Below are positions 904-53,786 of a DNA stretch of 64,000 bases, piece by piece; positions within the stretch are counted from its first letter, which is position 1; every line of letters starts with the position of its first letter. This DNA comes from Leptospiraceae bacterium. GTDB taxonomy: Bacteria > Spirochaetota > Leptospiria > Leptospirales > Leptospiraceae. The notes beneath the pieces are model-generated. The model was not told the origin of the DNA. It did not search any database and worked only from the letters and a program-made list of their open reading frames with translations. The stretch is taken from positions 64,001 through 128,000 of the forward strand of contig JACKPA010000012.1 in the NCBI GenBank assembly GCA_024233865.1, read 5' to 3'. The translations under genes and the position numbers were made by a program.

Positions 904-2028
904 TCAATACCACAATCGAAAACCAAAAGTATACTGCAAGTTCATTCCTCCTGATTTGTAGTTATGACTTCGGACATAATAGATATTAGAGTAAAAGTTT
1001 AAATAAGCACTATCCCCTTTTGTTTGTACTTTGACAGGCTCATAAGGGTGAAACAAAAACAGGTCTGCAATATTCCACAAATAAAAGCCAAGCAGAATGT
1101 TTGAAACTTGATTCAATCTTGTTGTAGCTTGCTCTACTTGAGTATATTTCTGCTCGCTTTCTGCAAAATTTACAATTTGCAAAGGATTACTTCTCGGTAT
1201 CAAAAACGTCGTATTAATGCTTTCGTTATATTCAGCCAGTTTTTGATTATAATCTTTGTTTGTTTGGTAGTAGGCAACCAACAGTGCTATTGCTATAGCC
1301 GGATATACTTTTAATTTCCATTTTTCTTTTGTACCACATTGGTTTGATCTATGGTATTGCCCCCAACCGGGAACTACAGCAGACCTCCAAAGTGGCTCAT
1401 ATAGGGAACATCTTGTAAATTTATCTCTTTCTTTTACAACTATAAATCGCTTTTTTTGATAGGTTTTATTGTGAGGATTTTCCAAAACCAAGTCATACTC
1501 GCCAATGGATGCGTCTTCCACACCTAAAGTAGCTTCCAGTTTATTTTTAGTAATAAATTGAACGTCTTTTACGGGAAGACTTCCTTTGGAAGACAGGATT
1601 TGAACCTTAGTATCTTGAACAAAATTCTCACCTTCCAAAACAATATTTTTGGTTCCAACTTCTTTCTCTATATAAACCGTATCCTCATTTGTTAATCTGG
1701 GGACAGCACTAATTGTAACTTCAAAAGAAACCCAGTCTGTCCACGTTTTGGCTACTCCAAATTTATTCAAAACTCCAATTCTATGCTCATACATCCCCGG
1801 TTCAACATCCTTACCTAATTCATAAGAATTGGTTGTCACTTTTTTATCCAATATTATTTTTTGAGATTCGTTCCTTACTTGAACCTTATAGCCAGAAGCA
1901 TTTTTAATTGCTTCCCACTTGAGTTCTTGCGAGCTCGAATCAAATAAAAAGAGAAATATAACCATGATTAATAAATATTTAAAAAATTGGTAATATAATT
2001 TTTTCATTTCGCATCTTACATTATTCAA
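904..2028 (-). CDS. Secreted/membrane hypothetical protein with FN3-like beta-sandwich
   Basis: N-terminal hydrophobic signal (LLIMVIFLFLF). Motif 'GYKVQVRN' is typical of FN3-like folds. Stop overlaps the start region of the upstream gene, suggesting an operon. Confidence 0.45.
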   Translation of the reverse strand: MNNVRCEMKKLYYQFFKYLLIMVIFLFLFDSSSQELKWEAIKNASGYKVQVRNESQKIILDKKVTTNSYELGKDVEPGMYEHRIGVLNKFGVAKTWTDWVSFEVTISAVPRLTNEDTVYIEKEVGTKNIVLEGENFVQDTKVQILSSKGSLPVKDVQFITKNKLEATLGVEDASIGEYDLVLENPHNKTYQKKRFIVVKERDKFTRCSLYEPLWRSAVVPGWGQYHRSNQCGTKEKWKLKVYPAIAIALLVAYYQTNKDYNQKLAEYNESINTTFLIPRSNPLQIVNFAESEQKYTQVEQATTRLNQVSNILLGFYLWNIADLFLFHPYEPVKVQTKGDSAYLNFYSNIYYVRSHNYKSGGMNLQYTFGFRLWY

Positions 2029-4117: not shown

Positions 4118-6137
4118 TCAGCATCACAGCTGCTTTGTCTACTTTTCCTTTTGTTTTTTGGGATTCCTCAAATTTATCAATGGCTCGATCCCAATTCCTG
4201 CTTAAGTAATAAACCATACCAGCATCGTACAAATCCGTTGCTCTTAAAACACTTTGTGTAACTTCATTTTTGGAACAAATCAGTTCATAAACTTTTACCG
4301 GTTCATTTTTTCCCTTTACACGCACCAAATCCAAAAGCCTGGTAAACATTTCGTTTGATATATTGTATTTTACACTTTCACTAATGAGTATATTTACACC
4401 ATAGTCTTTACCAGCCGCTTCCAAACGAGCCGCCAAATTTACCGTATCACCCATCATTGTATAAGAAGCAAGAGCATCCGTTCCCATAAAACCCACCTTT
4501 GCCAAACCGGTATTGAGTCCAATACGTATATCCATAGATTGAGCCTCTTTAGAATACATGTTTTTAGACTTCCAATATTCTCTCAACTCTTGCAATTTCC
4601 GAATCATTTCTAAAGAAGCGCGAGCAGCTTTTTTGCAATGCTCTTCTACATCCACAGGTGCATTAAAAATTCCTACAATTGCATCACCAATATATTTATC
4701 CAAAACTCCATCGTGTTTTTTGAGTATAATTGTCATAGCAGAGAGATATTCGTTTAGTAGTCCTGCAAGATCAACAGAAGACAACTGTTCGCTTATGGTA
4801 GAGAAACTCGCCACATCAGAAAAAAAAGCAGTTATTTCTTGCTCCTTGCCTCTTTTGAGAACTTGGAGGTCCTTCATAGCTTCTTCCACAACCGTTGGGT
4901 CGATCATACTGCCCAAAATATTTTTGACCTTTTCTCTTTCTTCTAAACCCAATCCCATAGAAACAAAGTGTTTTGTTAGTAGTCCGACTTCGTCTTTTGA
5001 TTGTGGTTTTATATCTACTCGAAAATTTCCTTTTGTGATTTCTAAAGTTGCGGCAAGCAATGCCAAAATAGGAAGTGAAATCGTCTTGGCAAATAGATAC
5101 ACCACTATCAAAGCCACACAAAGAGAGATCACCATGATAAAAATGTTCCTATTTTGGATCATGTAAACGGCTTCAAAAGCTTTGTCTTCTGGAATAGTTG
5201 CCAAAATACCACTATTGGCAAACCCCAATTTTCGATATGAAACCAAATATCTTTTTCCACTTTCCTTTTCGATATAATCAAACTGTCCGTTATTCACTTT
5301 ACTGGTAAACGCACTTTGAACCGTATTGGTGTCCATAAAATTTGAACCGCTTAAGGTGACGGAACTATCCGGATGAGCAATCACAATCCCCTTATGATTT
5401 ACCATAAAAACGGTAGTAATACCTCTTTCCTTAAAAACGCTAATAATTCGTTCTAATTTTACAATTACAACCAATATCGTATTAATCTCTGTTTCTTCGG
5501 AAGAAGGTAAACTAATGGCAAAAATCGGATGAGAAGCACTTTGACTCATGTTGTGTAAAATAGACATTCCATAAAAAGATTCCATAAAAGAAGAACGTTT
5601 GGCTTGAATCAAATCTTCAAAAGATTCCTTTGTCATATTAAACTCATCCATTTCCAATTGATTATAGATCGTTTTTATGGGAACTAACGTTTCATTCTCT
5701 TTTTTATACAGTCCCAAAAACAAGAAATCTCGATCATTGGCAAAAAAATGCTCCATCCACGAGTTTTTGTCCGCGGCTGAAACTTTGGAATCATTTAGCG
5801 TTTTAACTAGTTGTAAAGATTTGTCTAATATAGATTGAACATCCGACTTTATCTTCTCCCCTATGGTATTTACCAGATCAATACTATTTTCTCGAATTCT
5901 TAGATCAATTTCTCGTTTAAAAAAAAATGTTGCAAGAATAATTATGATAGAAAGCGTTACCCCAAAAATAGCAGAAATAACAACCATCAACTTGACCTGA
6001 ATAGACCACTTAGGGGCTTCTGCCTCAATTTTCGGATCGTTTAACTGAGTAAGTAAAAATTTTAGCTTGTAATCAAAAACTTTTTTAAAATTTCTGATCA
6101 TTATGGAATCTAATACCATAAATAGTATTCTAATCAT
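4041..6137 (-). CDS. Class III adenylate/guanylate cyclase with extracellular sensor and HAMP domain; TPR-like C-terminus
   Basis: Two TM segments flank a ~280-aa periplasmic region, followed by a HAMP-like segment. Cyclase core: IRIGLNTG...GDTVNLAARLE...VNILISESV. The C-terminal segment is TPR-like, ending MLIARCQTYRQ. Confidence 0.8.
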   Translation of the reverse strand: MIRILFMVLDSIMIRNFKKVFDYKLKFLLTQLNDPKIEAEAPKWSIQVKLMVVISAIFGVTLSIIIILATFFFKREIDLRIRENSIDLVNTIGEKIKSDVQSILDKSLQLVKTLNDSKVSAADKNSWMEHFFANDRDFLFLGLYKKENETLVPIKTIYNQLEMDEFNMTKESFEDLIQAKRSSFMESFYGMSILHNMSQSASHPIFAISLPSSEETEINTILVVIVKLERIISVFKERGITTVFMVNHKGIVIAHPDSSVTLSGSNFMDTNTVQSAFTSKVNNGQFDYIEKESGKRYLVSYRKLGFANSGILATIPEDKAFEAVYMIQNRNIFIMVISLCVALIVVYLFAKTISLPILALLAATLEITKGNFRVDIKPQSKDEVGLLTKHFVSMGLGLEEREKVKNILGSMIDPTVVEEAMKDLQVLKRGKEQEITAFFSDVASFSTISEQLSSVDLAGLLNEYLSAMTIILKKHDGVLDKYIGDAIVGIFNAPVDVEEHCKKAARASLEMIRKLQELREYWKSKNMYSKEAQSMDIRIGLNTGLAKVGFMGTDALASYTMMGDTVNLAARLEAAGKDYGVNILISESVKYNISNEMFTRLLDLVRVKGKNEPVKVYELICSKNEVTQSVLRATDLYDAGMVYYLSRNWDRAIDKFEESQKTKGKVDKAAVMLIARCQTYRQSPPPQNWDGVFTRTTK

Positions 6138-14392: not shown

Positions 14393-15148
14393 ATGATTAT
14401 TGTATCGATAGCCAACCAAAAAGGTGGAGAGGGCAAAACAACCACTTCAATAAATCTAGCTGATGGAATAGCTAGAAGAAATAAGAGAACTTTGTTAATT
14501 GATATGGATCCACAAGCAAATTCGACCGGTATATTTTTAAATTCCGATCAAATAGAAAAATCAATGTACCATGTTTTTAATTCTTTTGCACCTGTAAAAG
14601 AAATTATCCACAAAACCAAAGTCGAAAATCTTGATATCGCTCCTTCTGAGCTAAAATTGGCCGAAATGGAAACAAGGAGTTCTAATACGGTAGAAGCTCC
14701 TTATATACTGAAAGACGCTTTGAGCAACCTAAATAATGAGTATGACATCTGCATAATCGATTGTCCTCCTAGTTTATCCATCTTTACCATCAATGCTTTG
14801 GTTGCTTCCAATTATATAATCATTCCTTTACAGGCAGAAAAGTTTTCGATTGATGGCATAATAGGACTACAAGGCACTGTTGATAATATAAAAAAGAGAA
14901 TCAATCCTCAACTACAGATTCTAGGAGCACTTATTACCCAATTAAAACCCCAGACATTATTAACAAAAACAATCGTACCAGTAATTGTAAAGTTTTTTAG
15001 GTTGTTTGATACAACAATTTCAGACGGTGTATCTGTTGGAGAAAGCAATATGGCAAGAAGTTCTGTTTACACCTATAATAAAAAAAGCAAACAAGCGCAG
15101 GAATATGAAAACTTTACAGAGGAAGTTTTAAATGAGCTCGAAAAGTAA
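14393..15148 (+). CDS. parA: ParA/Soj partition ATPase
   Basis: Deviant Walker A NQKGGEGKTTTS; 251 aa. Overlaps parB by 17 bp. Confidence 0.9.
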   Translation: MIIVSIANQKGGEGKTTTSINLADGIARRNKRTLLIDMDPQANSTGIFLNSDQIEKSMYHVFNSFAPVKEIIHKTKVENLDIAPSELKLAEMETRSSNTVEAPYILKDALSNLNNEYDICIIDCPPSLSIFTINALVASNYIIIPLQAEKFSIDGIIGLQGTVDNIKKRINPQLQILGALITQLKPQTLLTKTIVPVIVKFFRLFDTTISDGVSVGESNMARSSVYTYNKKSKQAQEYENFTEEVLNELEK

Positions 15149-15980
15149 AAGATTAGGGACTCTTGTTGATATATTTCAAGCAGAAACATTAGAAGGCTCT
15201 ATAAAAAAAATTAAAATAGACTCAATACAACCCTCTGATACTCAACCTAGAATAGATAGAAGGAAAGCAGTCGATGAATTAGCAGAAAGTCTAAAACAAA
15301 ATGGACTTCTGCAACCAATTCTAATAACAAAAAGAGATGGTGAAAGTAATTACAGAATTATAGCAGGAGAGAGAAGATATCATGCTGCCAAATCATTAGG
15401 GTGGACAGAATTAGAATGTAAAATATTAAATAAAACAGAAAAAGAAACCTACAAACTAGCCATTATAGAGAACTTACAAAGAGAAAACCTTACTCCCTAT
15501 GAAGAAACAGAAGCCATTGCATTTTTAAAAAGCAACTACCATTATACAGATCTGGAATTAGCAGAAATCTTCGGAAAAAGCCGAAGTTATATGACTGAAA
15601 TATTAAGCATCTCCACACTAAATAAAGATGAGATGCAAATTTGCAAAGAAAACGGTATAGGTACAAAAAACCTTCTTGTTCAGGCTGCACAAGCCTCTAA
15701 AAAAGGAGATTTCACTGAATTCATAGAGCAAATAAAAAATAAAGAAATCAAAACAGTTAAAGACGCAAAAAAATTTAATAAAAAGATAACCATTGAAAGC
15801 GATAACACTTTAAACGATGCTATCCCCCTCAATACCCCCAATGAAAACCACCAAGAAACCAAAAGTAATTATACAATAACAAAAGATTCCAATCAAATAA
15901 TTATACAAGTCAGCAATCATGAGCTTATCAATAAAATCTATGAGTTTATAAGCCAAGAATTAGCAAATCTTCAGCTATAA
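15132..15980 (+). CDS. parB: ParB/Spo0J partition protein
   Basis: ParB box IIAGERRYHAAKSLGW. The N-terminal ParB/Srx fold is followed by a divergent C-terminus. Confidence 0.85.
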   Translation: MSSKSKRLGTLVDIFQAETLEGSIKKIKIDSIQPSDTQPRIDRRKAVDELAESLKQNGLLQPILITKRDGESNYRIIAGERRYHAAKSLGWTELECKILNKTEKETYKLAIIENLQRENLTPYEETEAIAFLKSNYHYTDLELAEIFGKSRSYMTEILSISTLNKDEMQICKENGIGTKNLLVQAAQASKKGDFTEFIEQIKNKEIKTVKDAKKFNKKITIESDNTLNDAIPLNTPNENHQETKSNYTITKDSNQIIIQVSNHELINKIYEFISQELANLQL

Positions 15981-16550: not shown

Positions 16551-17609
16551 ATGAGACATAAATTAACTTATAATCGAAGGGTGTCAATAATTTTTGATTA
16601 TATTTTGCTTAATATTAGTTTTTTTTTATCAAAAGGAGAAGGTATGAGCGAGAATTTTCAGTATTTTAAGTTCATGACTGATATTATAGACTCTGGGACT
16701 TGGGCAAAGCTGTCTTCCGCTGCCAAAAGCTTGTATCCTGTGTTGCTAAAATTTAGTGACCAGACTTTCAAGTATGTATGGCCTAGCACGGAAACCTTGA
16801 TGAGGCTGACCGGCTTCAAAACTAAAAAGTCTGTCATCTTGGCAAAAAAAGAACTTATGAACGTAGGACTTATCCGCACAGTCTCAGGTTCTGGGAGAAC
16901 TAATTCCAGATACTATTTTTCTTTTAATTACGAGGGTTCCAAAATTACACCTCTGGGGGATAAAGAAATATACCGATCAGGTGTATTGAAATCAACCGCA
17001 GAGGCATGTCCGGCTACATCTTTAGGGGATAGCTCAGCAAACCCAAACAATATTAATATAACTATAACCAATAATCCAGGTCAAAAAGCAAAAAATTCGA
17101 GTAATAAAACCAAAAATACTGACAACTATTTTAAAAACAATTTTTCTGAAGATGTATTATCTTATGAATCTTTGCTAGATATTTATGGAATTGAAATATT
17201 AAACTACGCTTATTCCATAGCTCAAAAGAGAAATCTGGAAAATGATATTTCTCACATAAAAGATATCTGCAAAGCTCGTGTTAAAGAAATTAGCTCTACA
17301 CTTGTGGGAGCAAAGCAAACACCAAACAATAACCTCGAAATATCGAGTATATGGTCTAATTTTATTAGATGGACAGAGATTCACTTGACTTCAACATCGA
17401 TTGAAATGATAAAAAATGCAAATATTCTCATTGAAGGACGAACAATTATTGTTCAAGGGGAGTTGAATAAATATTTGCAGCAAGTTATTGTGAAATATTT
17501 TTCTGAAAAAGTTACTCCTAAAATATTTATTTCTTTTAGTAATAATGAAAAGATAAATGGTAAAGCTTTAAATGGTATCGAATTTTCAAAAAACGGACAT
17601 TTTGATTGA
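16551..17609 (+). CDS. Winged-HTH replication-initiator-like / regulatory protein
   Basis: Probable true start at 16644 (ATG preceded by AAAGGAGAAGG). The N-terminal wHTH resembles plasmid/phage Rep N-domains (..SAAKSLYPVLLKFSD..WPSTETLMRLTGFKTKKSVILAKKELMNVGLIRT), followed by a low-complexity linker. Confidence 0.45.
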   Translation: MRHKLTYNRRVSIIFDYILLNISFFLSKGEGMSENFQYFKFMTDIIDSGTWAKLSSAAKSLYPVLLKFSDQTFKYVWPSTETLMRLTGFKTKKSVILAKKELMNVGLIRTVSGSGRTNSRYYFSFNYEGSKITPLGDKEIYRSGVLKSTAEACPATSLGDSSANPNNINITITNNPGQKAKNSSNKTKNTDNYFKNNFSEDVLSYESLLDIYGIEILNYAYSIAQKRNLENDISHIKDICKARVKEISSTLVGAKQTPNNNLEISSIWSNFIRWTEIHLTSTSIEMIKNANILIEGRTIIVQGELNKYLQQVIVKYFSEKVTPKIFISFSNNEKINGKALNGIEFSKNGHFD

Positions 17610-43254: not shown

Positions 43255-44031
43255 ATGAAAGAAGAAAAAAGCTCTAAAGAAGCAAATATAATTGCTGTAT
43301 CCAACCAAAAGGGAGGTGAAGGAAAAACTACTATTTCGCTTTTTTTATCAGAAGCGCTTTCGGAACATTTTAAAGTTTTACTTATTGATTGGGACGCACA
43401 AGCCAATGCAACAAGATTGTTTGTGAATAATCCGGAAAAGTCTATTTTTCACTGTTTAAAATATAGAAATAATTCACCAATTTCAATGAATGTGATAACT
43501 AAGCATATCACTGAGAATTTTCATTTGATTCCATCTTCTATTTCATTGGCTAACCTAACAACTCCTTTCGATATAGAAGATTTTGAATTATTAAAGGATG
43601 CTATCGAACCATTAAAACCTCTATATGATTATATTATTATAGATTGTCCTCCTTCTCTGGGATTGGTTTTGGAAAATGCTCTAATCGCAGCCGATTATGT
43701 AATTATACCAGTTCAAACCAGAGCTTTTAGTGTTCAGGGTTTACAAGATTTGTACAACTCTATTGAAAAAATTAAAAAAAGAGCAAATCCAAATCTTAAA
43801 TTATTGGGTGCAATCTTGAATCAATATGAAGAGAGTAGGGCATTGTCGGGTTTATCAAAAAATATTCGTAAATACTTTCCTGTATTCAAAACGATTATAT
43901 ATAGAAAAGAAAATATTCCGCAAGCTCAAGCCAAAAGAAAATTGTTGAAAGGATGTGATCCAAAAACAAGGAAGAATTTTTATGAACTTGCAAATGAAAT
44001 TCAGGAGCATATAAATGTCGAAAAAAAATGA
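43255..44031 (+). CDS. parA: ParA/Soj partition ATPase (second copy)
   Basis: Deviant Walker A NQKGGEGKTTIS. Overlaps parB by 17 bp. Confidence 0.85.
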   Translation: MKEEKSSKEANIIAVSNQKGGEGKTTISLFLSEALSEHFKVLLIDWDAQANATRLFVNNPEKSIFHCLKYRNNSPISMNVITKHITENFHLIPSSISLANLTTPFDIEDFELLKDAIEPLKPLYDYIIIDCPPSLGLVLENALIAADYVIIPVQTRAFSVQGLQDLYNSIEKIKKRANPNLKLLGAILNQYEESRALSGLSKNIRKYFPVFKTIIYRKENIPQAQAKRKLLKGCDPKTRKNFYELANEIQEHINVEKK

Positions 44032-44713
44032 ATTTGGAGCATTGGATTTAATTTCCGTATATGATGAAAAAAAGGAAAATCCTGATAAAATTCCAATTTC
44101 TGAAATTATATCAAATCCCAACCAACCAAGGGTATTTGGTAAAGATAATGTAGATGATTTGCTTGATTCTATAGAAAGGCTCGGTTTGATAGAGCCGATT
44201 GTTGTAAGAAAGGACTTAGATGGGTATGTCCTTGTTGCGGGAGAAAGAAGACTAAATGCTGCCACAAAATTAGGCTGGAGTGAAATTCCAGCCATTGTAA
44301 CGGATGCCAATCCTGATGTTTGTTATGAGATGGCATTGGCAGAAAATGAAAAAAGAAAGAGCCTTAATCCTTGGGAAGTGGGAAGAGCTATTGATTATTT
44401 AAGGAAGGAAAAAAATAAAACCGCTGATGAGGTTGGTAAGATACTCGGCTACACACCTAGATATATTAAACAGTTAAACGCTATTGCTAGAATTGAGCAA
44501 GATGTTGTGAATGAATTTATACAAAAAGGAAATGAGCCATCTATAAAAAATTTAGAAAGACTGCTTAAAATGCAAAGCGGAGAAGAACAACCAAAATATA
44601 AATATGTTCCAAAAAACAATAGGATAGTTATTGATTTAAAAAGAATTCCTGAGCAAGCCAGAGTTGATTTTATGGAAGAGCTTCAGAATTTAAAAATTAA
44701 GTATGGGATATGA
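44015..44713 (+). CDS. parB: ParB-like partition protein (second copy, short)
   Basis: ParB box LVAGERRLNAATKLGW; 232 aa. Confidence 0.8.
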   Translation: MSKKNEFGALDLISVYDEKKENPDKIPISEIISNPNQPRVFGKDNVDDLLDSIERLGLIEPIVVRKDLDGYVLVAGERRLNAATKLGWSEIPAIVTDANPDVCYEMALAENEKRKSLNPWEVGRAIDYLRKEKNKTADEVGKILGYTPRYIKQLNAIARIEQDVVNEFIQKGNEPSIKNLERLLKMQSGEEQPKYKYVPKNNRIVIDLKRIPEQARVDFMEELQNLKIKYGI

Positions 44714-44843: not shown

Positions 44844-45764
44844 ATGAACCGTAATTTAAGGTTTAGTAATCTAGAAGACGTAGAAAAAGAACTAAAGAAA
44901 TTAGAAAACTCAAAAGTAGAGGCTAGTAGCTTTCTGAATTATTATCAAATTTTAAACCATTGTGCAGATCATATATACTTCTCTATGATGGGTTTTCCTG
45001 GAAGAAACTGGCCCTTTTTTATACGAAAAACTTATGGCAAGTATAAATTATCTCAAATCATGGAAGAAGGTTATATCCAACCGGATTCTCCTTTGCCTTA
45101 TGCTCCTAAAGAGAACGAAGATGGGAACGAAGATATTGCCATGGATAAACTAAAAAAAGCTATTGTAGATTTTAGAGATTATGAAGGTTCTTTGTCTGCT
45201 CATCCCTTTTATGATTTGTTAACCAAAGAATTATGGGAAAAATTTCATTCTATGTATATTGCAAATTTGTTAGGGTTTGTAAATGTAGTTGAGAAAGTTG
45301 AAGCAAAAGTTCCTAATACTAAAATGGTCGAGCCATCCAAACCAGTTATAGAAGAATCAAAACCTAAAAAAGCTGTTGTTAAAGAGCCAGAAAAAGTTCC
45401 TCAAAACAAAACTAAAATAGAGCAAATAACAACAACATCCTCACCTTCAAAAAAGAAACCGGTAAGTAAAAAAACTATTCCTGCTCCCGTTTCTAAAAAA
45501 TCTCTTATAAATACTTCTAAGAAAAAAGCTATAAAAGAAGTGGATAAACCTGCTGCAAAAAAGAAGCCTCAACAAAAATTGAAGCCGGATATTATTGCTA
45601 AAAAGAAACCGGTAAGTAAAAAAACTATTCCTGCTCCTGTTTCTACAAAATCTCCTATAAATACTTCTAAGAAAAAAGCTATAAAAGAAGTGGATAAACC
45701 TGCTGCAAAGAAAAAGCCTGCTTCTAAGCAGAAAATTAAGGAAACTGTAAAAAAGAAACGTTAA
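44844..45764 (+). CDS. Hypothetical protein with Lys-rich histone-H1-like C-terminal tail containing a ~130-bp tandem duplication
   Basis: Globular N-terminal domain. C-terminal KKKPVSKKTIPAPVSKKS.INTSKKKAIKEVDKPAAKKKP is repeated twice (DNA 45450-45579 and 45600-45719). Confidence 0.45.
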   Translation: MNRNLRFSNLEDVEKELKKLENSKVEASSFLNYYQILNHCADHIYFSMMGFPGRNWPFFIRKTYGKYKLSQIMEEGYIQPDSPLPYAPKENEDGNEDIAMDKLKKAIVDFRDYEGSLSAHPFYDLLTKELWEKFHSMYIANLLGFVNVVEKVEAKVPNTKMVEPSKPVIEESKPKKAVVKEPEKVPQNKTKIEQITTTSSPSKKKPVSKKTIPAPVSKKSLINTSKKKAIKEVDKPAAKKKPQQKLKPDIIAKKKPVSKKTIPAPVSTKSPINTSKKKAIKEVDKPAAKKKPASKQKIKETVKKKR

Positions 45765-46918
45765 CTTTGATTGTTTTGAATGGGAATTTTAAGCTTATAA
45801 AAAGGATAAAAAGCTGATTTCCAGAGTAGCAATGGAATAAATATGTTTATTAATAGTGTAAGTATCCATGCCCATAAGGGACCATACATTGTATAGGGAT
45901 CAAATTGGTGCATAAGGTGCATAATGATGGGATGCAAAAGGAATATTACCAAACTATTTTTTCCTATATAGATACAAGTGTGGTATATATAATTTAGAGA
46001 TGAATTGGTTGAGTTTTCAAGGTAATGACCCAAATAGATTAGGGTGATAAATGCAACAAAAGGATAAAATACGAATCGGCTTGAGTTTTCAAAAAAATTA
46101 AAAAACGTAAAATAAGCAATAAAGCTGTTATATATAATTATAGCTAAGACTAATAAATATAAATTTCTATTGCTGTGAAATAGTTCCATAAACTCATTTT
46201 TAAATAGAAGTTTTCTTTTCATAACCAAGCCTATTACAAAGAAAAAGAAGTAGTTTGTGCATGACAGAACTTGCCATCTATTAATTTCTTCGGAATGTTC
46301 TAAGGCAAAATATTGGTTTGAGAATATATTAATCAATAGAGAAAACAGAATCAAGATAGTTAAATTTTTGTTTTTTAGTTTTTCAATAACTTTATGAAAA
46401 ATAAAATAAAGAAAGTAGAACTGAAAAATCATGGGAATGAAGTAATAAGGCTCATATACTTTACCGAGTAATATTTGAATTATAAAATTCCATACTCCTA
46501 CCTTTTGAATATCATTGTATTTGATAAAAAATCCTAAAATTGCTATCAAAAAATAAGGTAAAAATAATTTATTGATTCTTGGCTTCCAGTAAGAAGATCT
46601 GGTTTTATAGTTTAAGAAGACAGCCGAGGAAAAAATAAAAATCGGAACGCAAAACCTATAATAATTAGAAAAGAGTCTTGTAATTTTTAGTTCAACGTTG
46701 TTTGGATGAAAATAGGTAAAATAGGAATCTATGTGAATGATAATAGTTCCTAAAGTGGCTACTCCGCGAATAAAATCAATTACTTCATTTCTTTTATAAT
46801 TTTCAACACTGGTGATGTTTTCATTATTTTGAAATAATGTTCTATAAGAGGGTGCAAACTTTAGCAAAAAAATACCTAGCAAAACACCTAAAATTTCAAT
46901 AAAAATATATGGATTCAT
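45761..46918 (-). CDS. Acyltransferase-3 family membrane protein
   Basis: ~10 TM helices. N-terminal DFIRGVATLGTIIIHI motif. Confidence 0.65.
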   Translation of the reverse strand: MNPYIFIEILGVLLGIFLLKFAPSYRTLFQNNENITSVENYKRNEVIDFIRGVATLGTIIIHIDSYFTYFHPNNVELKITRLFSNYYRFCVPIFIFSSAVFLNYKTRSSYWKPRINKLFLPYFLIAILGFFIKYNDIQKVGVWNFIIQILLGKVYEPYYFIPMIFQFYFLYFIFHKVIEKLKNKNLTILILFSLLINIFSNQYFALEHSEEINRWQVLSCTNYFFFFVIGLVMKRKLLFKNEFMELFHSNRNLYLLVLAIIIYNSFIAYFTFFNFFENSSRFVFYPFVAFITLIYLGHYLENSTNSSLNYIYHTCIYIGKNSLVIFLLHPIIMHLMHQFDPYTMYGPLWAWILTLLINIFIPLLLWKSAFYPFYKLKIPIQNNQS

Positions 46919-47037: not shown

Positions 47038-47496
47038 GTGAATCAAAATAAAATCTTACCCTATAATTCTATAGAAAGAAAACTAAATATGTCGATGTCT
47101 GCGTCTATAATAACTCAAAAAACAGGAAGATTGATTTTCAAGGAAGGTGACAAAGGAGACTCCATGTATATTATACTGGAAGGGACCGTTGATATTTATG
47201 TAATGGCAGATGGGCAAGAGATGCAGCTGGCAACTTTACATCCGGGAGATTTTTTTGGTGAAATGTCTTTGTTTCGTGATAAACCAAGAAGCGCAAGTGC
47301 CAGAGTTATCAAAGATGTTCGTTTGGCAGTAATACAAAGCAGACAACAATTAGAAAGATTCTTGGTGGATAATCCGTTGTTTGCTGCAAAAATGGTGACA
47401 ATTATGGCTGGTAGGCTTTCTAAAACTAATGAATTGTTGATCCAAAAGGTAAACGAACTGGCAGCCATTAAACTTGAATACCAAACTTCTCATTAA
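47038..47496 (+). CDS. Cyclic-nucleotide-binding domain protein
   Basis: GDFFGEMSLF...RSASARV is the cNMP-binding signature. Start probably at internal MSMSAS (~47089). Confidence 0.65.
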   Translation: MNQNKILPYNSIERKLNMSMSASIITQKTGRLIFKEGDKGDSMYIILEGTVDIYVMADGQEMQLATLHPGDFFGEMSLFRDKPRSASARVIKDVRLAVIQSRQQLERFLVDNPLFAAKMVTIMAGRLSKTNELLIQKVNELAAIKLEYQTSH

Positions 47497-47525
47497 AACT
47501 AATTGGATGTAGTAGGGTAGGGGAC

Positions 47526-47909
47526 TTATATTGGCTTTATTTCTATTACATTAAAAGGCAACTCATAGTCTTCTTGGTATTCATCACCCGTTTCTTTCCC
47601 AAAATCATTTTCCGGATCATAATGCCAATTAATGGTAATTTTTTTACCTGATTGGTAATAGGATTCAAGGATATCAAAAATATTCATGAATATTTTTGTG
47701 CTACTGGTGTTCAAATAGTCTATATTTATATCAAAAACGACGGGTTTATCCGATATTTTTACAAATTCATCTACCCAATAAATAATAGGTTCATAAAAAG
47801 CAGCAGGATTTTCCATATAGGATTTACCCTCTATTTTTAAGATACTGGTGTTTGCGTCAAATTCTATTTTTGGAGAAGACTTGCTTGCTTCTTTTTTTAG
47901 AGATTCCAT
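47526..47909 (-). CDS. DUF1987/SiaC-like partner-switch protein
   Basis: 127 aa. YEPIIYWVDEF...INIDYLNTSSTKIF...WHYDPENDF matches the SiaC-family 'YFNTSS' pattern. Confidence 0.55.
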   Translation of the reverse strand: MESLKKEASKSSPKIEFDANTSILKIEGKSYMENPAAFYEPIIYWVDEFVKISDKPVVFDINIDYLNTSSTKIFMNIFDILESYYQSGKKITINWHYDPENDFGKETGDEYQEDYELPFNVIEIKPI

Positions 47910-47923
47910 TTTATAAACCTTAT

Positions 47924-48481
47924 TTATAGCACTACTTTGATGGAAAAAAAGGAATGGTTTTCATTCAATTTCTTTATATGGTATTCGATAGGCTCAGTTG
48001 CTTGTCTCGCCATTTCAATTAAGCCTAAACCTGCACCCTTGGAACCGGATTCCGGCTCCTTTCTTCTCTGTTCTTTGAAGTAGGTTTTTAGTTCGTTTTT
48101 ATCCATTGATAAAATCTTTGTGAGTTTTACCTTAATGCTTTCAATTTCATCATTCAAAATAGAGTTTCCAGCGACACAGTATATCTTATCATTTTTTTCT
48201 CCAATGACAAATATGCCAGAAGGAACTTCACCGATTTTGGAGTTTGTTTTTATATCTTTCCCATATCTCATAATGTTTTGTACCTGCTCAACAAATACGG
48301 AAAAAACCCTTTCACTTTTACTTGCTTTATTATCTTGTAATTCTATATTTTTTCGGATAGATTCACCAATCTCTTCTAAAAGTCCCTGAGTAACAGGACC
48401 GGAATAACAGATAATTATTCCGTCCTGTTCTAGGATATTTTTAAAATTATGAACATTTTTGACATCCATACAAACCCTCAC
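47924..48481 (-). CDS. SiaB-like / anti-sigma-type small Ser/Thr kinase (HATPase-like fold)
   Basis: 185 aa. C-terminal G-box-like KGAGLGLIEMAR. Positioned between the STAS and DUF1987 genes. Confidence 0.45.
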   Translation of the reverse strand: MRVCMDVKNVHNFKNILEQDGIIICYSGPVTQGLLEEIGESIRKNIELQDNKASKSERVFSVFVEQVQNIMRYGKDIKTNSKIGEVPSGIFVIGEKNDKIYCVAGNSILNDEIESIKVKLTKILSMDKNELKTYFKEQRRKEPESGSKGAGLGLIEMARQATEPIEYHIKKLNENHSFFSIKVVL

Positions 48482-48485
48482 TCAT

Positions 48486-48520
48486 AGGTTGCTCCCTTCG
48501 GCTACGCTCAGAGGGAGCGG
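48486..48520. repeat. R1 element, single-arm copy (GCTCCCTTCGGCTACGCTCAGAGGGAGC)
   Basis: Matches the reverse complement of the R1 right arm with one substitution. Forms its own GCTCCCT/AGGGAGC hairpin between the kinase and STAS genes. Confidence 0.45.
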
Positions 48521-48531
48521 TGTTTCCTACC

Positions 48532-48909
48532 TCAGTTTCTGTATTCGCCTCTATGGAAAAATCGAAATGCTTCAATTTTTCCCGTAAGTTTTAGAGCTTT
48601 GAATTGAGTATTGTTGATGTTATTGATGTAGACGTTTTTTCCGTCCGCAACTACTTTATCGCCAAATTCTGACAACGCTCTTAAACCGGATGACTCCACT
48701 CTTTGACACTTATCAAAAAGGAGAATCACTTTATCATCTATTTCCGGTTTTGCTTCTTCATAAGCTTTTGTAACTGTTTCCATTGTTTCAATAGACAAAA
48801 TGGGTGGAACCAATATCTCTTCTTTTTTGGGTTTGGGTTCTGCTGCGATTGTATCACTTTGTCTGTCTAATTCACTAAATTCCGGTCCATCTAAAGTTAT
48901 GTCTAACAT
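48532..48909 (-). CDS. STAS-domain anti-sigma-factor-antagonist-like protein
   Basis: VILLFDKCQRVESSGLRALSEF...NVYINNINNTQFKALKLTG fits the STAS pattern. Carries a ~40-aa N-terminal extension. Confidence 0.5.
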   Translation of the reverse strand: MLDITLDGPEFSELDRQSDTIAAEPKPKKEEILVPPILSIETMETVTKAYEEAKPEIDDKVILLFDKCQRVESSGLRALSEFGDKVVADGKNVYINNINNTQFKALKLTGKIEAFRFFHRGEYRN

Positions 48910-48918
48910 ATTTCCTCT

Positions 48919-51630
48919 TTACCTTCTTATTTTATCCTTCTGAACTTTCCTACCATAATAAGCTTCTAAAAGCAAATCTTCCATTTCTGCTATCATAGGC
49001 ATACGAGGATTGCTTCTGCCGGAAGGGTCCAACATGGCGATACGAACCATCTCCGGTAATCTTTCCAAGTATACTTTTTCTTCGATACCATACTCAGCAA
49101 ATGTATGCTCGACGTGACACTTTTTAAGAAGGTCTTTAATGGCAGAGATGAGCAAATCAATTTTTCCTTCCACTGTGTTGGAGTGTCCTAAACCAGCCAT
49201 GTCTGCTATATAGGCATACTTTTTATGTGCTTTGTATGTTTTTACGTTTGGGCTTGGAGTGAATTTGGAAGGTATACTTGCATTGTAGCGTATCACGTAA
49301 GGCAAGAATATAGCGTTTGCTCTACCATGTGTTACACCGAAAGTCGCTCCCACCGCATGAGCCAAAGAGTGATTTACACCCACAAAGGCATTGGAAATTG
49401 CCATTCCCGCCATCGTAGAAGCATTGTGCAATCTCTGTCTCAACTCTACGTTATTTCCATTTTTGTAAACTTCTTCCAGATGATTAAATACAGTAATAAC
49501 CGTTTGCAACGCCAAACCGTCTGTAAAATCATTGCTCAGGCTCGATACCATGGCTTCAATAGCGTGAGTCAAAGCATCAAAACCCGTATCAGCCGTAACA
49601 ACCGGTGGAACGGAAATAGTCAAGTTTGGATCAATGATAGCTACGTCCGGAACAAGGCTATAGTCTGCCATTGTCAATTTTATATGAGCTTGATCATCTG
49701 TAATAACAGCCATTGGAGTCACTTCCGATCCTGTACCCGATGTAGTAGGGATGGCAACCAGTTTGATCTTCCTTTCGCCCGGATATTCCACAACCCTCTT
49801 TCGTGGGTCCAAAAATGCAATCTTTAGATCGTTGTAATCAAAGTTCGGATTCTCGTAGAAAAATCGAATGGCTTTGGCTATGTCTATAACCGAGCCTCCA
49901 CCCAACGCAATGATGGTGTCAGGATTGTACCTTGACATCATCTCAACCCCTTTCATCACCTGGCTAAAAGGAGGTTCCGGTGAAACATTGGAGAATACTT
50001 GTACTACCGGTATATGAGTTAATTGGCTCTTTATCATTTCCACATGACCGATTTTTACATTGATCGGTGTTGTGATGATGATGGTCGTGTTCGACTTGAT
50101 TTGTCTTAGGTGTTCAATACTGTGTTGATTAAAATAGATTTCATTTGGCACTCTAAACCACATACTTGCACTGGTCCTTTTGGCAACTCTTTTGACGTTT
50201 AAATAATGCTTGACATTGATGTTGTCCATCGTAATGTTTCCGCCACCCGTTCCACACCCAAAAGAAAATGTGGGAATTAGGTCATTGTAAACACCACCCA
50301 AAGCTCCAATGGATGAAGGAGAGTTGACAATAATCCTTCCCGCGTTGATTTTATCCGAAAATTCATCGATTACCTTTTGGTTTTCCGAAAAGATAGAAGC
50401 TGTATGACCTGTTCCCCCATAATAATTAATATCAATGCAGATGTTAATCGCTTCTTTGCTATTTTTTGCTTTGTACAAACCTAAAAGCGGAAACAATTTC
50501 TCACCGGAAAGAGGATGTTCTTTACCTATTCCCTTCAAAGGAGCAAGCAAAACTTTTGTTCCAACAGGTATATCAAATCCGGCTTTTTCTGCAAGGTAAG
50601 CAGCCGGCTTTCCAATCATGGAGGGCTTAACCATTCCTCTGTGGAATACCTTATTGGTCAGCTTTTTAACTTCTTCTTCATTACAAAGATAGGCACCATA
50701 GTGCTTGAATTTTTCGAGAACATCGTTGTAAATGAATTCATCAATTACAACCGTTTGCTCCGAAGCACAAATTGTTCCGTTGTCAAAGTATTTTGAGGTT
50801 AAAATGTCTATCACAGCCATTTCAATATCACCGCTGTTCTCAATATATACAGGTGTGTTCCCGGCACCGACTCCTAAAGCCGGTTTACCGGAGCTATAGG
50901 CTGCTTTCACCATTCCCGTTCCACCGGTAGCGTCCACCAAAGCAATATCGGGATGGTGAAACAGGTGATCCGTATCTTCAAAAGACGCATTGGTTATCAT
51001 CTGTATAACGCCTTCCGGTGCTCCGGCTTTTATTGCCGCTTGGTACATTAATTCAGCGGCTCTGGCTGAACACTGGGCTGCTCTTTGATGAGGTGAAAAA
51101 ATAATTGCGTTTCTCGTTTTTAGTGCCAATAAACACTTGAACAATACCGTAGAAGTTGGGTTTGTAACCGGAGTCAATCCGAAAATAACTCCATGAGGTT
51201 CAGCTACTTCTACAAGGTTCTTTTTAGGATATTCTTCAATAACTCCTACCGTTTTGACGTGTTTGATATGATCCCATACAAATTCTGTGGCAACCATATT
51301 CTTGATAACTTTATCTTCAATAATCCCCATTTCGGATTCTCTTACAGCCATTTCTGCCAATTCATACGAATTTGCAATCCCTACTACCACCATTGCTTTT
51401 ACAATTTTATCTACTTCTTCTTGTGTGTATTGTAAAAATAAGCCGGCTGCAACTTTTGCCTTTTCTACCATACCATCTAGATATGCTTTTCTGTCATCTA
51501 GCGCCTTTTCTTTGTCAGTTTTATGCCCATTGGTTGAGTTTGTTATATGTTCATTCGATTCTGTAGTGCTGCTTATTGCACTTTCTTGTGTTTCTTTCAC
51601 AGCTTCCATTCTGTTTCCCTTTTTTCCCAT
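48919..51630 (-). CDS. adhE: Bifunctional acetaldehyde-CoA / alcohol dehydrogenase
   Basis: 903 aa. N-terminal ALDH domain. C-terminal Fe-ADH domain with GGGSVIDIAKAI and a His cluster. Confidence 0.9.
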   Translation of the reverse strand: MGKKGNRMEAVKETQESAISSTTESNEHITNSTNGHKTDKEKALDDRKAYLDGMVEKAKVAAGLFLQYTQEEVDKIVKAMVVVGIANSYELAEMAVRESEMGIIEDKVIKNMVATEFVWDHIKHVKTVGVIEEYPKKNLVEVAEPHGVIFGLTPVTNPTSTVLFKCLLALKTRNAIIFSPHQRAAQCSARAAELMYQAAIKAGAPEGVIQMITNASFEDTDHLFHHPDIALVDATGGTGMVKAAYSSGKPALGVGAGNTPVYIENSGDIEMAVIDILTSKYFDNGTICASEQTVVIDEFIYNDVLEKFKHYGAYLCNEEEVKKLTNKVFHRGMVKPSMIGKPAAYLAEKAGFDIPVGTKVLLAPLKGIGKEHPLSGEKLFPLLGLYKAKNSKEAINICIDINYYGGTGHTASIFSENQKVIDEFSDKINAGRIIVNSPSSIGALGGVYNDLIPTFSFGCGTGGGNITMDNINVKHYLNVKRVAKRTSASMWFRVPNEIYFNQHSIEHLRQIKSNTTIIITTPINVKIGHVEMIKSQLTHIPVVQVFSNVSPEPPFSQVMKGVEMMSRYNPDTIIALGGGSVIDIAKAIRFFYENPNFDYNDLKIAFLDPRKRVVEYPGERKIKLVAIPTTSGTGSEVTPMAVITDDQAHIKLTMADYSLVPDVAIIDPNLTISVPPVVTADTGFDALTHAIEAMVSSLSNDFTDGLALQTVITVFNHLEEVYKNGNNVELRQRLHNASTMAGMAISNAFVGVNHSLAHAVGATFGVTHGRANAIFLPYVIRYNASIPSKFTPSPNVKTYKAHKKYAYIADMAGLGHSNTVEGKIDLLISAIKDLLKKCHVEHTFAEYGIEEKVYLERLPEMVRIAMLDPSGRSNPRMPMIAEMEDLLLEAYYGRKVQKDKIRR

Positions 51631-51853: not shown

Positions 51854-52687
51854 ATGAGAACTGGGCTTATAATTGTTTTTATTTGCTGTATTTTTACTCA
51901 AGTTCTTTTCTCCGAAGAAAGAATTAAAGTAATTGATCCAAAGAATTATCCGGAGTACTTAAAAGAAAGAGATTCTATTGGAAATAAGTGGCAAATTGCA
52001 GTTATTTCTCCATTTCCCGATTCTCCATTATCATATTCTTTAAATGTGAATTATCGAGCATTTTCAAAAATCAGCTTTGGTGTTTCGGCAATGAGGGATA
52101 TATACAAAAAGTCTACTGATGGGATTAACTCTGGTTCTTATCCAGGCTATGTTCAATTTGAGAATGGTTTTGCCCTTAATATCCCATTATCAGCAACTAC
52201 GATAACTGACGAAACAAGACCACAAGGTATCATTTTTGGACGCTACTATTTTAACGATTTTGATAAAATAGGTGAGTCTATATTGGTTAGTACTTATTTT
52301 AATTTAGGTTTGGGTCGTAATTTTGGAGGCTGGACTATAAAAGAACAGACGACTTCCGTATACAAAACAGGAACAAATGGGGGATTTCGATTAAGTCCGC
52401 TAACTGTAACCTATGATGTTTCTCCGTTAAATTTTATAGCGATGGCAATGGGAGTTCAATTATTTTTTACGAAACCAAAAGGTTTGTTTTTGACATTTGA
52501 ATTAGGGATTTCCCTTTATAATTCAAAGAGAACAATTTATGCATATAGTGATCCTGCACGGTTTTATGCTGAACCCATTTCGGTCGCAGAAGTTTTATTA
52601 GCTCAACTAATTGCAAAGCAGGAAGACCCTTATTTTTCACATTCTCTTTTTTTTATTCCTTGGATAGGTTATTCATTTAATTTTTGA
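51854..52687 (+). CDS. Secreted hypothetical, beta-rich
   Basis: Signal peptide. Confidence 0.35.
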   Translation: MRTGLIIVFICCIFTQVLFSEERIKVIDPKNYPEYLKERDSIGNKWQIAVISPFPDSPLSYSLNVNYRAFSKISFGVSAMRDIYKKSTDGINSGSYPGYVQFENGFALNIPLSATTITDETRPQGIIFGRYYFNDFDKIGESILVSTYFNLGLGRNFGGWTIKEQTTSVYKTGTNGGFRLSPLTVTYDVSPLNFIAMAMGVQLFFTKPKGLFLTFELGISLYNSKRTIYAYSDPARFYAEPISVAEVLLAQLIAKQEDPYFSHSLFFIPWIGYSFNF

Positions 52688-52690
52688 ATT

Positions 52691-53419
52691 ATGAAAAATT
52701 GTATTTGGTTTATTCTATTATTGTTTATACATTGCTCTGCTAAAACTATAAATATAGGGCATAACCAAAAAAAGTTTGGTTTACGTTACAGCTATAGAGT
52801 GGGAGTGTTACCATACAAAGACAGCCGAACAAATGAGATGCCAAAGTTGGTAGAATATCAAAATGTCCTTCAAGATTTTAAAAAAGTATTAAACGATCAA
52901 CCAATTAAAGTCAATTACTCTTGCAATACCAATAGCAATCGCTTTTTTTCAGTAGAGTATTTGGCTCAAGATTTAAAACAAGCTGAAGTGTTTCAGGATA
53001 TTATTGAACTTTCCGGTTTTCCTGAGTTAGATACTTCGGAACTTATTCAACGTTATCAACTAGACTTATTGATTCAACCTGAGCTAAAAGATATTTATTT
53101 GGAAAAAAGTTTTTCAATAGCAAATTTATTTGGCTATATGCTTCCACCAGCAGTTTTAATGGGATTAATCGGAATTCCTTTCCCATTACTTGTCGAATAT
53201 AATTTTGTTATTTATCTAGATATTAATTTTTATAAAAAAAATAATAGTAAAATGATTAAAAAAAATTATATACATAAAGGGATTAGATTCGCAGATATTG
53301 GAACTTCTTATTATGAATTTGACACTGAAAATAAAAAACATAATTTGGGATTGCTTATCAAGAATCTATATGAAAATTTAGAATATGAGATTAGTGAAGA
53401 AATGTTTACTGAATTATAA
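52691..53419 (+). CDS. Hypothetical lipoprotein-like
   Basis: Signal/lipobox-like LFIHCS. Confidence 0.35.
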   Translation: MKNCIWFILLLFIHCSAKTINIGHNQKKFGLRYSYRVGVLPYKDSRTNEMPKLVEYQNVLQDFKKVLNDQPIKVNYSCNTNSNRFFSVEYLAQDLKQAEVFQDIIELSGFPELDTSELIQRYQLDLLIQPELKDIYLEKSFSIANLFGYMLPPAVLMGLIGIPFPLLVEYNFVIYLDINFYKKNNSKMIKKNYIHKGIRFADIGTSYYEFDTENKKHNLGLLIKNLYENLEYEISEEMFTEL

Positions 53420-53786
53420 ATTTATACTTCTATTTTTCATCGTGAATTGTGCCACCTTATTTACAAAAGAAAGATTTGCAATTTCATTAGAATCGAATAT
53501 AGAAGGTGTTTTTTGTACCATTCGTTCTGACTTTGAAGTAGTTCCTGTGAGGGTTCAAATCCCTAGCGTTATTGAATTAAAATTTGATAAACACTATGAA
53601 TTACTATGTGAAAAAAAAGGATACCAAAGAAAACTTATTCCAATCGAAAACAATATAAAACCAATAACAGCTTGTAACGCATATCCATGTATGGGAATTC
53701 CATTTTATATTGATTGGTACGAATACTCATTTTATGAACCTAAATCAAATAGAATTCAAATTCAATTGGAAAAAATAAACCCCTGA
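53385..53786 (+). CDS. Small secreted hypothetical
   Basis: Signal peptide with FIVNC. Confidence 0.3.
   Translation: MRLVKKCLLNYKFILLFFIVNCATLFTKERFAISLESNIEGVFCTIRSDFEVVPVRVQIPSVIELKFDKHYELLCEKKGYQRKLIPIENNIKPITACNAYPCMGIPFYIDWYEYSFYEPKSNRIQIQLEKINP

Follow-up and report, generated by a model that had tools for sequence, protein, structure and literature searches.

The locus and its genes

The subject of this analysis is a gene cluster with a predicted SiaB-SiaC-type partner switch in a Leptospiraceae bacterium (GenBank assembly GCA_024233865.1, contig JACKPA010000012.1), located in a stretch of 64,000 nucleotides (positions 64,001 to 128,000 of the forward strand of the contig) which as a whole is called the window and in which all coordinates are given. 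A preliminary description, made from the sequence alone, had recognized at 47038-48909 one partner-switching module with a STAS protein and a DUF1987/SiaC-like protein as dual targets of a SiaB-like kinase, adjacent to a gene for a stand-alone cyclic nucleotide monophosphate (cNMP)-binding domain. The locus is more probably composed of two juxtaposed units, an adhE-STAS pair and an orphan siaB-siaC pair, the latter acting in trans on an effector that bears a stalk module, most likely a cyclase. The genes concerned are the following.

48919-51630, minus strand: adhE, bifunctional acetaldehyde-CoA/alcohol dehydrogenase, 903 amino acids (NF010378, 1136 bits, cut-off 951)
48532-48909, minus strand: gene for a divergent STAS-domain protein, 125 amino acids (family profile, AlphaFold2 (AF2)/Foldseek)
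47924-48469, minus strand: siaB-family Ser/Thr protein kinase gene, GHKL/Bergerat-type fold, 181 amino acids (NF038262, PF19788)
47526-47909, minus strand: siaC-family (DUF1987) regulatory phosphoprotein gene, 127 amino acids (PF09345, YLNTSS)
47038-47496, plus strand: gene for a stand-alone cNMP-binding domain protein, 133-152 amino acids (PF00027)

The open reading frames (ORFs) initially reported are present, three of them co-directional on the minus strand (48532-48909, 47924-48481 and 47526-47909) and one on the plus strand (47038-47496), in a window that is AT-rich with a GC content of about 30-40%. The cluster does not, as had been assumed, begin at the STAS gene, since adhE (48919-51630) on the same strand ends 9 bp upstream of it. 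The minus strand thus carries four head-to-tail ORFs, with adhE, whose product combines Aldedh, Fe-ADH and ADH_Fe_C domains in a profile search, as the first gene of the co-directional run ahead of the genes for the 125-residue STAS protein, the 181- or 185-residue SiaB and the 127-residue SiaC. For the kinase, gene callers pick the ATG at 48469 (181 residues), and the GTG at 48481 gives 185 residues. The stop codon of adhE is separated from the STAS start by 9 bp, the STAS gene from siaB by 62 bp (50 bp from the GTG) and siaB from siaC by 14 bp. Because neither a promoter-like site in the 48482-48531 gap between the STAS gene and siaB nor a terminator-like site on the minus strand between adhE and siaC was found, it is plausible that siaB-siaC are co-transcribed with adhE-STAS. 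A GC-rich hairpin at 48492-48519 was considered as a terminator or repeat element and discarded, as it occurs as a single copy in the window, shows no stability beyond that of shuffled sequences (z-score -0.72) and is devoid of a U-tract. Identical copies of the locus are found on contig JAGRNI010000039 of GCA_020440835.1, a Leptospiraceae metagenome-assembled genome (MAG), and on Logan and ENA contigs.

A SiaB-family kinase and a SiaC-family phosphoprotein

The profile searches suggested for the kinase fold and for DUF1987 bore out both assignments. The product of 47924-48481 matches the NCBIfam profile NF038262 (SiaB_fam_kinase) with 189 bits (cut-off 85) over residues 12-184 and Pfam PF19788 (DUF6272) with 143 bits (cut-off 26.6), and can be aligned over its full length with SiaB of Pseudomonas aeruginosa (PDB 6kko_A, E 9e-27). 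Equally, the elements of the ATP-binding fold are intact, with the N-box EQVQN (E61, N65) and the lid GSKGAGLGL (G145-x-G147-x-G149), and all five of these residues are invariant or nearly so in 38 homologs. The SiaC-family protein reaches 141 bits on Pfam PF09345 (DUF1987; gathering cut-off 24.5) and aligns without gaps to the SiaC structures 6kko_C/6k4f (E 1.7e-23), with which it shares an identical YLNTSS motif. Within this motif, Thr68 (47706-47708) is aligned with the motif threonine of 6kko_C/6k4f. In P. aeruginosa, T68 of SiaC is the phosphorylation target of SiaB (PMC8457831) and slots between the stalk helices of the diguanylate cyclase SiaD (PMC8457831; PMC7647112). By analogy, the window SiaB would be expected to phosphorylate T68 of its neighbour. 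From the list of SiaD-contacting residues (PMC8457831), 8 of 11 are kept in the window SiaC (Y65, N67, T68, S69, M75, D79, E110 and D114).

As the family cut-offs are reached and the equivalog cut-offs missed (129.6 versus 225 bits on NF038264 for SiaB; 117.3 versus 150 bits on NF038265 for SiaC), the two proteins are, as judged by these profiles, assigned as family members and not as orthologs (equivalogs) of the P. aeruginosa proteins.

Neighbourhoods of SiaB-SiaC in other genomes

When GTDB species representatives were scanned with a SiaB alignment, 80 loci were obtained in addition to L001 and L002, both of which are copies of the window locus. SiaC accompanies SiaB in 78 of these 80 loci (80 of 82 with the window copies included), so that the expected co-conservation holds for this pair. 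In 32 of 58 scored loci, a SpoIIE/PP2C domain, often combined with a HAMP or Cache sensor, is encoded by the gene immediately upstream of siaB. The genes downstream of SiaB-SiaC specify GGDEF enzymes, histidine kinases or class III cyclases.

Whatever their catalytic domain, these neighbouring effectors have an N-terminal helical module of approximately 95 residues in common, the stalk module, present in 68 of the 80 loci with the consensus ..LF..EE..I..AE.LL......Y..LL..YkKL.RQtrRLVk[IM]SD..Q..LN. (stalk alignments A6 and A7, drawn from loci L004-L082). The best PDB match of the module profile (A6, 66 segments) is SiaD (7e6g_A, E 5.8e-5), which is matched twice, over RIARISDGFQ and KVARISDRYQ. 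These two segments coincide with the SiaC-binding stalk motifs of SiaD, which have been defined structurally as S50/Q54 and S82/Q86 (PMC8457831). No Pfam family covering the module was found. According to Pfam domains, the 68 stalk-bearing proteins comprise 30 with GGDEF, 28 with a histidine-kinase HATPase_c and 8 with a Guanylate_cyc domain; effector classes were counted in this way, as a phmmer search with a full-length cyclase over-counts cyclases by matching the shared stalk. SiaC-type switches are not specific to diguanylate cyclases, and the SiaD stalk represents a portable N-terminal module on three effector classes. A hidden Markov model of this module could predict SiaC targets genome-wide, including those of orphan pairs. 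Among the 55 loci with full flanks, 43 possess both a PP2C gene and a stalk effector gene, 6 only the effector, 3 only the PP2C and 3 neither; the orphan arrangement is thus uncommon, at about 5% of loci.

In sequence, the closest relatives of the window pair that form a complete operon occur in four contigs (L092-L095; SiaB 52-55% identical), which encode in succession a dCache-HAMP-PP2C protein (733 residues), SiaB, SiaC and a stalk-bearing class III cyclase (321-327 residues; cyclase domain PF00211, 163-167 bits; operon at L092:1312-5422 in the first). These are unlabelled metagenome contigs, and their similarity indicates a presumably Leptospira-like origin. Equally, in the Leptospiraceae MAG GCA_027485405.1 a 7TMR-DISM-GAF-GAF-PP2C protein is followed by SiaB and SiaC at the contig end (L010), and a further contig of this MAG (L107:1-1254) carries the C-terminus of a SiaC 56% identical to the window SiaC and, after 4 bp, a stalk-cyclase of 354 residues. 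The SiaC proteins of these closest relatives (L092-L095, L010 and L107) score 130-150 bits. An uncultured Leptospira (L003) encodes a HAMP-PP2C protein upstream of SiaB. The closest homolog of the window SiaB itself, with 70% identity, is a lone gene behind a gene for a ChaN-like haem-binding protein (L091:705-1247, GCA_009612975.1). Judged from these gene neighbourhoods, the Sia-type switch in Leptospira-like bacteria appears to gate a cAMP/cGMP rather than a cyclic di-GMP output, and the cyclase variant offers a testable entry into the cyclic-nucleotide signalling of this group.

The STAS protein and its linkage to adhE

Taken alone, the 125-residue protein stays below the Pfam threshold for STAS (PF01740, 18 bits, cut-off 22.6). 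A single-sequence search of an index of 5.8 billion proteins recovered three relatives, and when 1.84 billion representatives were searched exhaustively with a profile, a family of nine clusters at 50% identity emerged. In the family alignment (A5), STAS is matched by all 11 sequences at E<0.1, the best value being 2e-6, and STAS_2 by six of them. Compared with the PDB, all matches of the family profile at E<0.1 are STAS domains, among them those of prestin/SLC26, MlaB, TM1442 and SulP. AF2 supplied with a 3-sequence alignment gave no usable model (mean predicted local distance difference test score, pLDDT, 38); with 11 sequences, the core was modelled with moderate confidence (pLDDT about 80) as strand-strand-helix-strand-helix-strand-helix-strand. 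In a Foldseek search with this model, the top 50 PDB matches are essentially all STAS domains, the best being SpoIIAA (1thn_B), RsbV and TM1442; for SpoIIAA 1thn_B, the template modelling (TM) score is 0.59-0.64 and the root mean square deviation 2.2 A over 88 residues. As family matches, profile-versus-PDB matches and modelled fold agree, the assignment as a divergent but real STAS domain, first proposed from the sequence, holds at the level of the family profile and the model.

The family is characterized by the motifs KCxR-ESSGL and FRFxHRGEY. Ser73 (48691-48693), within ESSGL, occupies the position of the phospho-serine of anti-sigma-antagonists, with ESSGL aligned to DSAGL of TM1442; the position varies in the family, P0130 having Ala and P0131 Gly. 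The sequences of most members terminate with a Cys, a tail that is missing from the window copy.

The genomic setting of the family is uniform with respect to one gene only. In 7 of 7 retrievable contexts, including the window, the STAS gene lies directly 3' of adhE at a distance of 9-142 bp, the other flanks being unrelated.

Window STAS gene: 9 bp after adhE
P0003 (78% identity; L083/L084): 9 bp after adhE, followed by LysR-AhpC-AhpF-Dps
P0124 (43% identity; L097): 53 bp after a second adhE paralog of the same MAG, GCA_020440835.1
P0126 (L101-L103): 12 bp after adhE
P0125 (L104/L105): 126-142 bp after adhE
P0131 (L109), the most divergent member: 24 bp after adhE
P0127 (L100): 21 bp after an incomplete upstream ORF that is an AdhE C-terminus (70% identity)

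A direct search of L083/L084 detected no SiaB or SiaC, profile searches of L083/L084, L097, L101 and L104 detected no PP2C or stalk module, and the called genes of the remaining STAS contexts outside the window show no SiaB/SiaC, PP2C or stalk module. Conversely, none of the 80 other SiaB loci encodes a homolog of the window STAS protein (phmmer, E<=1e-3). Because of this adhE linkage and of the absence of such a STAS gene from SiaB loci, the gene is assigned on genomic context to adhE and not to the SiaB-SiaC switch. The co-conservation on which the proposal of a single module with STAS and SiaC as dual targets had been made to depend therefore breaks down at the STAS gene: STAS follows adhE in all seven contexts, and the 80 other SiaB loci are without it.

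The strict adhE linkage of a small STAS family suggests an unrecognised post-translational control of a central fermentative enzyme. A more far-reaching proposal, which we consider tentative, is that the 125-residue protein founds an undescribed AdhE-dedicated STAS family that binds and regulates AdhE, and that an orphan SiaB-SiaC pair has been captured into this operon, where it is co-expressed and possibly cross-wired, with SiaB acting on Ser73 of the STAS protein. Regulation of AdhE by the STAS protein could proceed via filament assembly or via the redox state through the conserved Cys. In the literature searched, nothing relevant on an AdhE-associated STAS protein was retrieved, a weak negative since the term 'adhe' also matches 'adhesion'.

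Upstream of and divergent from adhE, three successive plus-strand ORFs of 277, 242 and 133 codons (51854-53786) are without Pfam match and are kept in the MAG copies.

The cNMP-binding gene

The plus-strand gene encodes 152 residues when read from its GTG codon, and gene callers start at M18 or M20 (133-135 residues). Its product matches PF00027 (cNMP_binding) with 86.9 bits (cut-off 27.5), and the phosphate-binding cassette FGEMSLF..KPRSASA, as read from the translation, is intact with the Glu and the Arg-Ser-Ala kept. No helix-turn-helix was found, as the CRP equivalog matches with profile positions 16-142 of 214 and 59.8 bits (cut-off 266) only; the C-terminal helix-turn-helix of CRP/FNR transcription factors is consequently missing and the designation as a stand-alone cNMP-binding domain was appropriate. 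The gene had been placed as divergent from the cluster; it is in fact convergent with siaC, the two stop codons being 29 bp apart, and its divergent neighbour is an acyltransferase_3 gene (45761-46918).

A conserved association of cNMP-binding and SiaB-SiaC genes was considered and rejected, since an ORF for a cNMP domain occurs within about 6 kb in 5 of the 80 other loci and adjacent in none, a proximity judged indistinguishable from background. The cNMP-binding gene is a separate transcription unit, tied to the switch thematically only.

Leptospiraceae encode proteins in which a cNMP-binding domain is fused to a class III cyclase (P0137, P0138, P0155, P0161, P0166 and others); over the cNMP domain of P0138 and the helix that follows it, the window protein shows 29% identity.

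Partners missing from the window and the window cyclase

Every stop-to-stop ORF of at least 40 residues in the window was searched at E<=10 with a PP2C profile derived from 67 locus hits, a GGDEF profile that recovers 33 and the stalk module. None of the three profiles has a match in the whole 64-kb window, which confirms and extends the observation that the cluster lacks PP2C and GGDEF genes. Equally, stalk motif patterns, which recover 42-48 of 68 true stalks, are without match in the window in any frame. The features of a complete SiaABCD-type module, a PP2C gene beside siaB and a stalk effector gene beside siaC, are accordingly missing, the upstream neighbour being the STAS gene. A genome search for the cognate SiaA-like PP2C and GGDEF genes had been recommended; its part covering the 64-kb window returned neither. 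In the remaining window, most of which was annotated with Pfam, no sigma factor, anti-sigma factor or further STAS gene was found. One related signalling gene only is present.

4041-6137, minus strand: dCache (weak)-HAMP-class III cyclase gene, 698 amino acids

This cyclase, 41 kb from siaBC, has HAMP and a coiled-coil before its catalytic domain. Because it is devoid of the stalk module, it is by this criterion not a predicted SiaC target. The preliminary description had suggested a link of the output to cAMP/cGMP with this enzyme as candidate; the link as such gains indirect support from the closest relatives, which carry a class III cyclase gene after siaC, while the candidate itself, without stalk, does not.

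The ORF that follows this cyclase gene (2021-4117, minus strand) encodes a FecR-domain protein of 698 residues; its listed TTG start, 77 bp inside the cyclase gene, probably lies too far upstream.

A probable juxtaposition of two units and the alternatives

The explanation regarded as most probable combines adhE and its dedicated small STAS protein, a pair conserved in the lineage, as one unit with siaB-siaC as a second unit, which would descend from PP2C-SiaB-SiaC-cyclase operons like those of its nearest relatives and would have parted from phosphatase and effector. If the pair functions like its homologs in the Pseudomonas SiaABCD system, SiaB as a GHKL-type kinase would phosphorylate SiaC on Thr68. 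Unphosphorylated SiaC would clamp the conserved motif R-L-V-K-[IM]-S-D-x-x-Q, which a dimeric effector carries in its coiled-coil stalk, and thereby switch the enzyme on, phospho-SiaC would be unable to bind the stalk, and a PP2C phosphatase would reset SiaC. As PP2C and stalk effector are missing from the 64-kb window, these partners would act in trans or the pair would be idle; a working pair is favoured because the catalytic and interface residues are intact. A class III cyclase with a stalk, encoded elsewhere, would be the likeliest effector and cAMP/cGMP synthesis the likeliest output, because the nearest SiaB/SiaC relatives use such an effector.

Several observations weigh against this reading. 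No PP2C or stalk effector has been located for this genome in the 64-kb window, and a search with the cyclase of L093 retrieved, among the 120 matches listed, mostly catalytic-domain paralogs, with a stalk in P0132-P0136, P0140 and P0141 only. P0141, considered as a trans-encoded stalk-cyclase of the same MAG, was dismissed as it comes from a different MAG. Three SiaD-contacting positions are changed in the window SiaC (I71T, R103F and L107T). The prediction of a cyclase output draws on relatives at just 52-55% identity, and SiaC similarity is not sorted by output type, the next best SiaC matches being GGDEF-linked. The lone siaB gene of L091 is not followed by a SiaC ORF within 250 bp, which suggests that the Sia module is breaking apart in this clade and that the lineage may be decaying. 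Finally, with only 9, 62 and 14 bp between the successive genes of adhE-STAS-siaB-siaC, a functional link particular to this lineage is conceivable.

Decay taken to its end point would make siaB-siaC a non-signalling remnant of a PP2C-SiaB-SiaC-cyclase operon after loss of phosphatase and effector. This explanation can call upon the rarity of orphan pairs (3 of 55 full-flank loci), on the loss of SiaC already seen beside the closest homolog (70% identity) and on the absence of encoded partners within 64 kb, yet it is considered unlikely. Both ORFs are intact, the invariant catalytic and lid residues, T68 and the 8 of 11 SiaD-contact residues are kept, and identical proteins have been recovered from several independent assemblies. 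The numerous PP2C phosphatases and cyclases of Leptospiraceae could supply partners in trans, which would likewise count against a remnant.

Less probable still is the original notion of one module, in which the SiaB kinase serves two substrates, Ser73 of the STAS protein and Thr68 of SiaC, even though the genes are co-directional, lie only 62 (or 50) and 14 bp apart and have no terminator predicted between them. It gains some appeal from the serine at the canonical STAS phospho-site (ESSGL versus DSAGL of TM1442) and from the fold of SiaC, which is itself STAS-related (PMC7647112; PMC8457831). The STAS gene is, however, linked to adhE in 7 of 7 contexts with no copy in the 80 other SiaB loci, the second adhE-STAS pair of the same genome is without an adjacent kinase gene, and the putative phospho-serine is replaced in P0130 (Ala) and P0131 (Gly). 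Most improbable is the proposal that a window protein is the target of SiaC, be it the 4041-6137 cyclase, the cNMP-binding protein or AdhE, since the stalk module is matched by none of the window ORFs even at E<=10, motif patterns are empty in all frames, the cyclase is 41 kb off and cNMP genes near SiaBC occur in 5 of 80 other loci with none adjacent, although class III cyclases are SiaC-linked effectors in relatives, the window cyclase has HAMP and a coiled-coil before its catalytic domain and the cNMP-binding gene abuts siaC.

With two juxtaposed units as the preferred reading, the practical result is a corrected annotation, in which the 'atypical dual-target partner switch' becomes a two-unit juxtaposition and not a new system.

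Other features of the window

Two parA-parB pairs are located 28 kb apart (14393-15980, 16551-17609 and 43255-44713), the first beside a gene for an HTH_36 (Rep-like) protein, and over roughly 14 to 18 kb the GC skew passes from strongly negative to positive values; a secondary replicon or an integrated plasmid-like element may have its replication origin here. A DUF1569 protein (44844-45764, plus strand; shortened to 256 residues by gene callers) possesses a long Lys/Pro-rich C-terminal tail with a near-exact duplication of approximately 45 residues (KKKPVSKKTIPAPVS.KS.INTSKKKAIKEVDKPAAKKKP).

Comparison with known systems

In the literature searched, SiaABCD has been described in P. aeruginosa alone, with a diguanylate cyclase as output, and DUF1987 proteins are reported to be widespread and to possibly regulate adjacent proteins. 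The same literature contains no account of class III cyclases or histidine kinases under Sia-type control, of a portable stalk module or of an adhE-linked STAS protein, and nothing relevant on DUF1987/SiaC in Leptospira. The locus is an ordinary representative of a family already known, in a rare orphan arrangement, and the adhE-STAS linkage is the more novel aspect.

The window pair resembles P. aeruginosa SiaABCD (PA0172-PA0169; 6KKO, 6KKP, 6K4F, 7E6G) in full-length homology, the YLNTSS motif, the order of siaB followed by siaC and the short gap between them, and most SiaD-contacting residues of SiaC are shared. On the other hand, SiaABCD has SiaA (HAMP-PP2C) encoded upstream and SiaD (stalk-GGDEF) downstream, whereas the 64 kb of the window are without either, and its output is a diguanylate cyclase in contrast to the class III cyclase in the nearest relatives of the window pair. 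Closest in sequence are the uncharacterised PP2C-SiaB-SiaC-class III cyclase operons (L092-L095, L010 and L107), which are complete, whereas the window pair sits behind adhE-STAS.

With respect to the RsbU/RsbV/RsbW and SpoIIE/SpoIIAA/SpoIIAB systems, the window STAS protein shares the SpoIIAA/RsbV fold and the Ser at the phospho-site, and the window SiaB, like RsbW and SpoIIAB, has a GHKL ATP-binding fold. Unlike in RsbU/RsbV/RsbW systems, no sigma factor, RsbW-type HATPase_c kinase or PP2C is encoded near the STAS gene, and instead of the co-conservation of STAS with kinase and phosphatase genes seen in an RsbV/RsbW/RsbU-type module, all seven contexts are adhE-linked. Equally, unlike RsbV-type genes, the window STAS gene is tied to the metabolic adhE and belongs to a small family of its own with KCxR and FRFxHRGEY. 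Precedent for STAS domains as protein-binding regulators of enzymes or transporters instead of sigma factors is provided by HsbA-HsbD, BgrV-BgrR, MlaB and the STAS domains of SLC26/SulP; MlaB and the SLC26 STAS domain are among the best profile matches of the window STAS family, and none of these systems is AdhE-associated.

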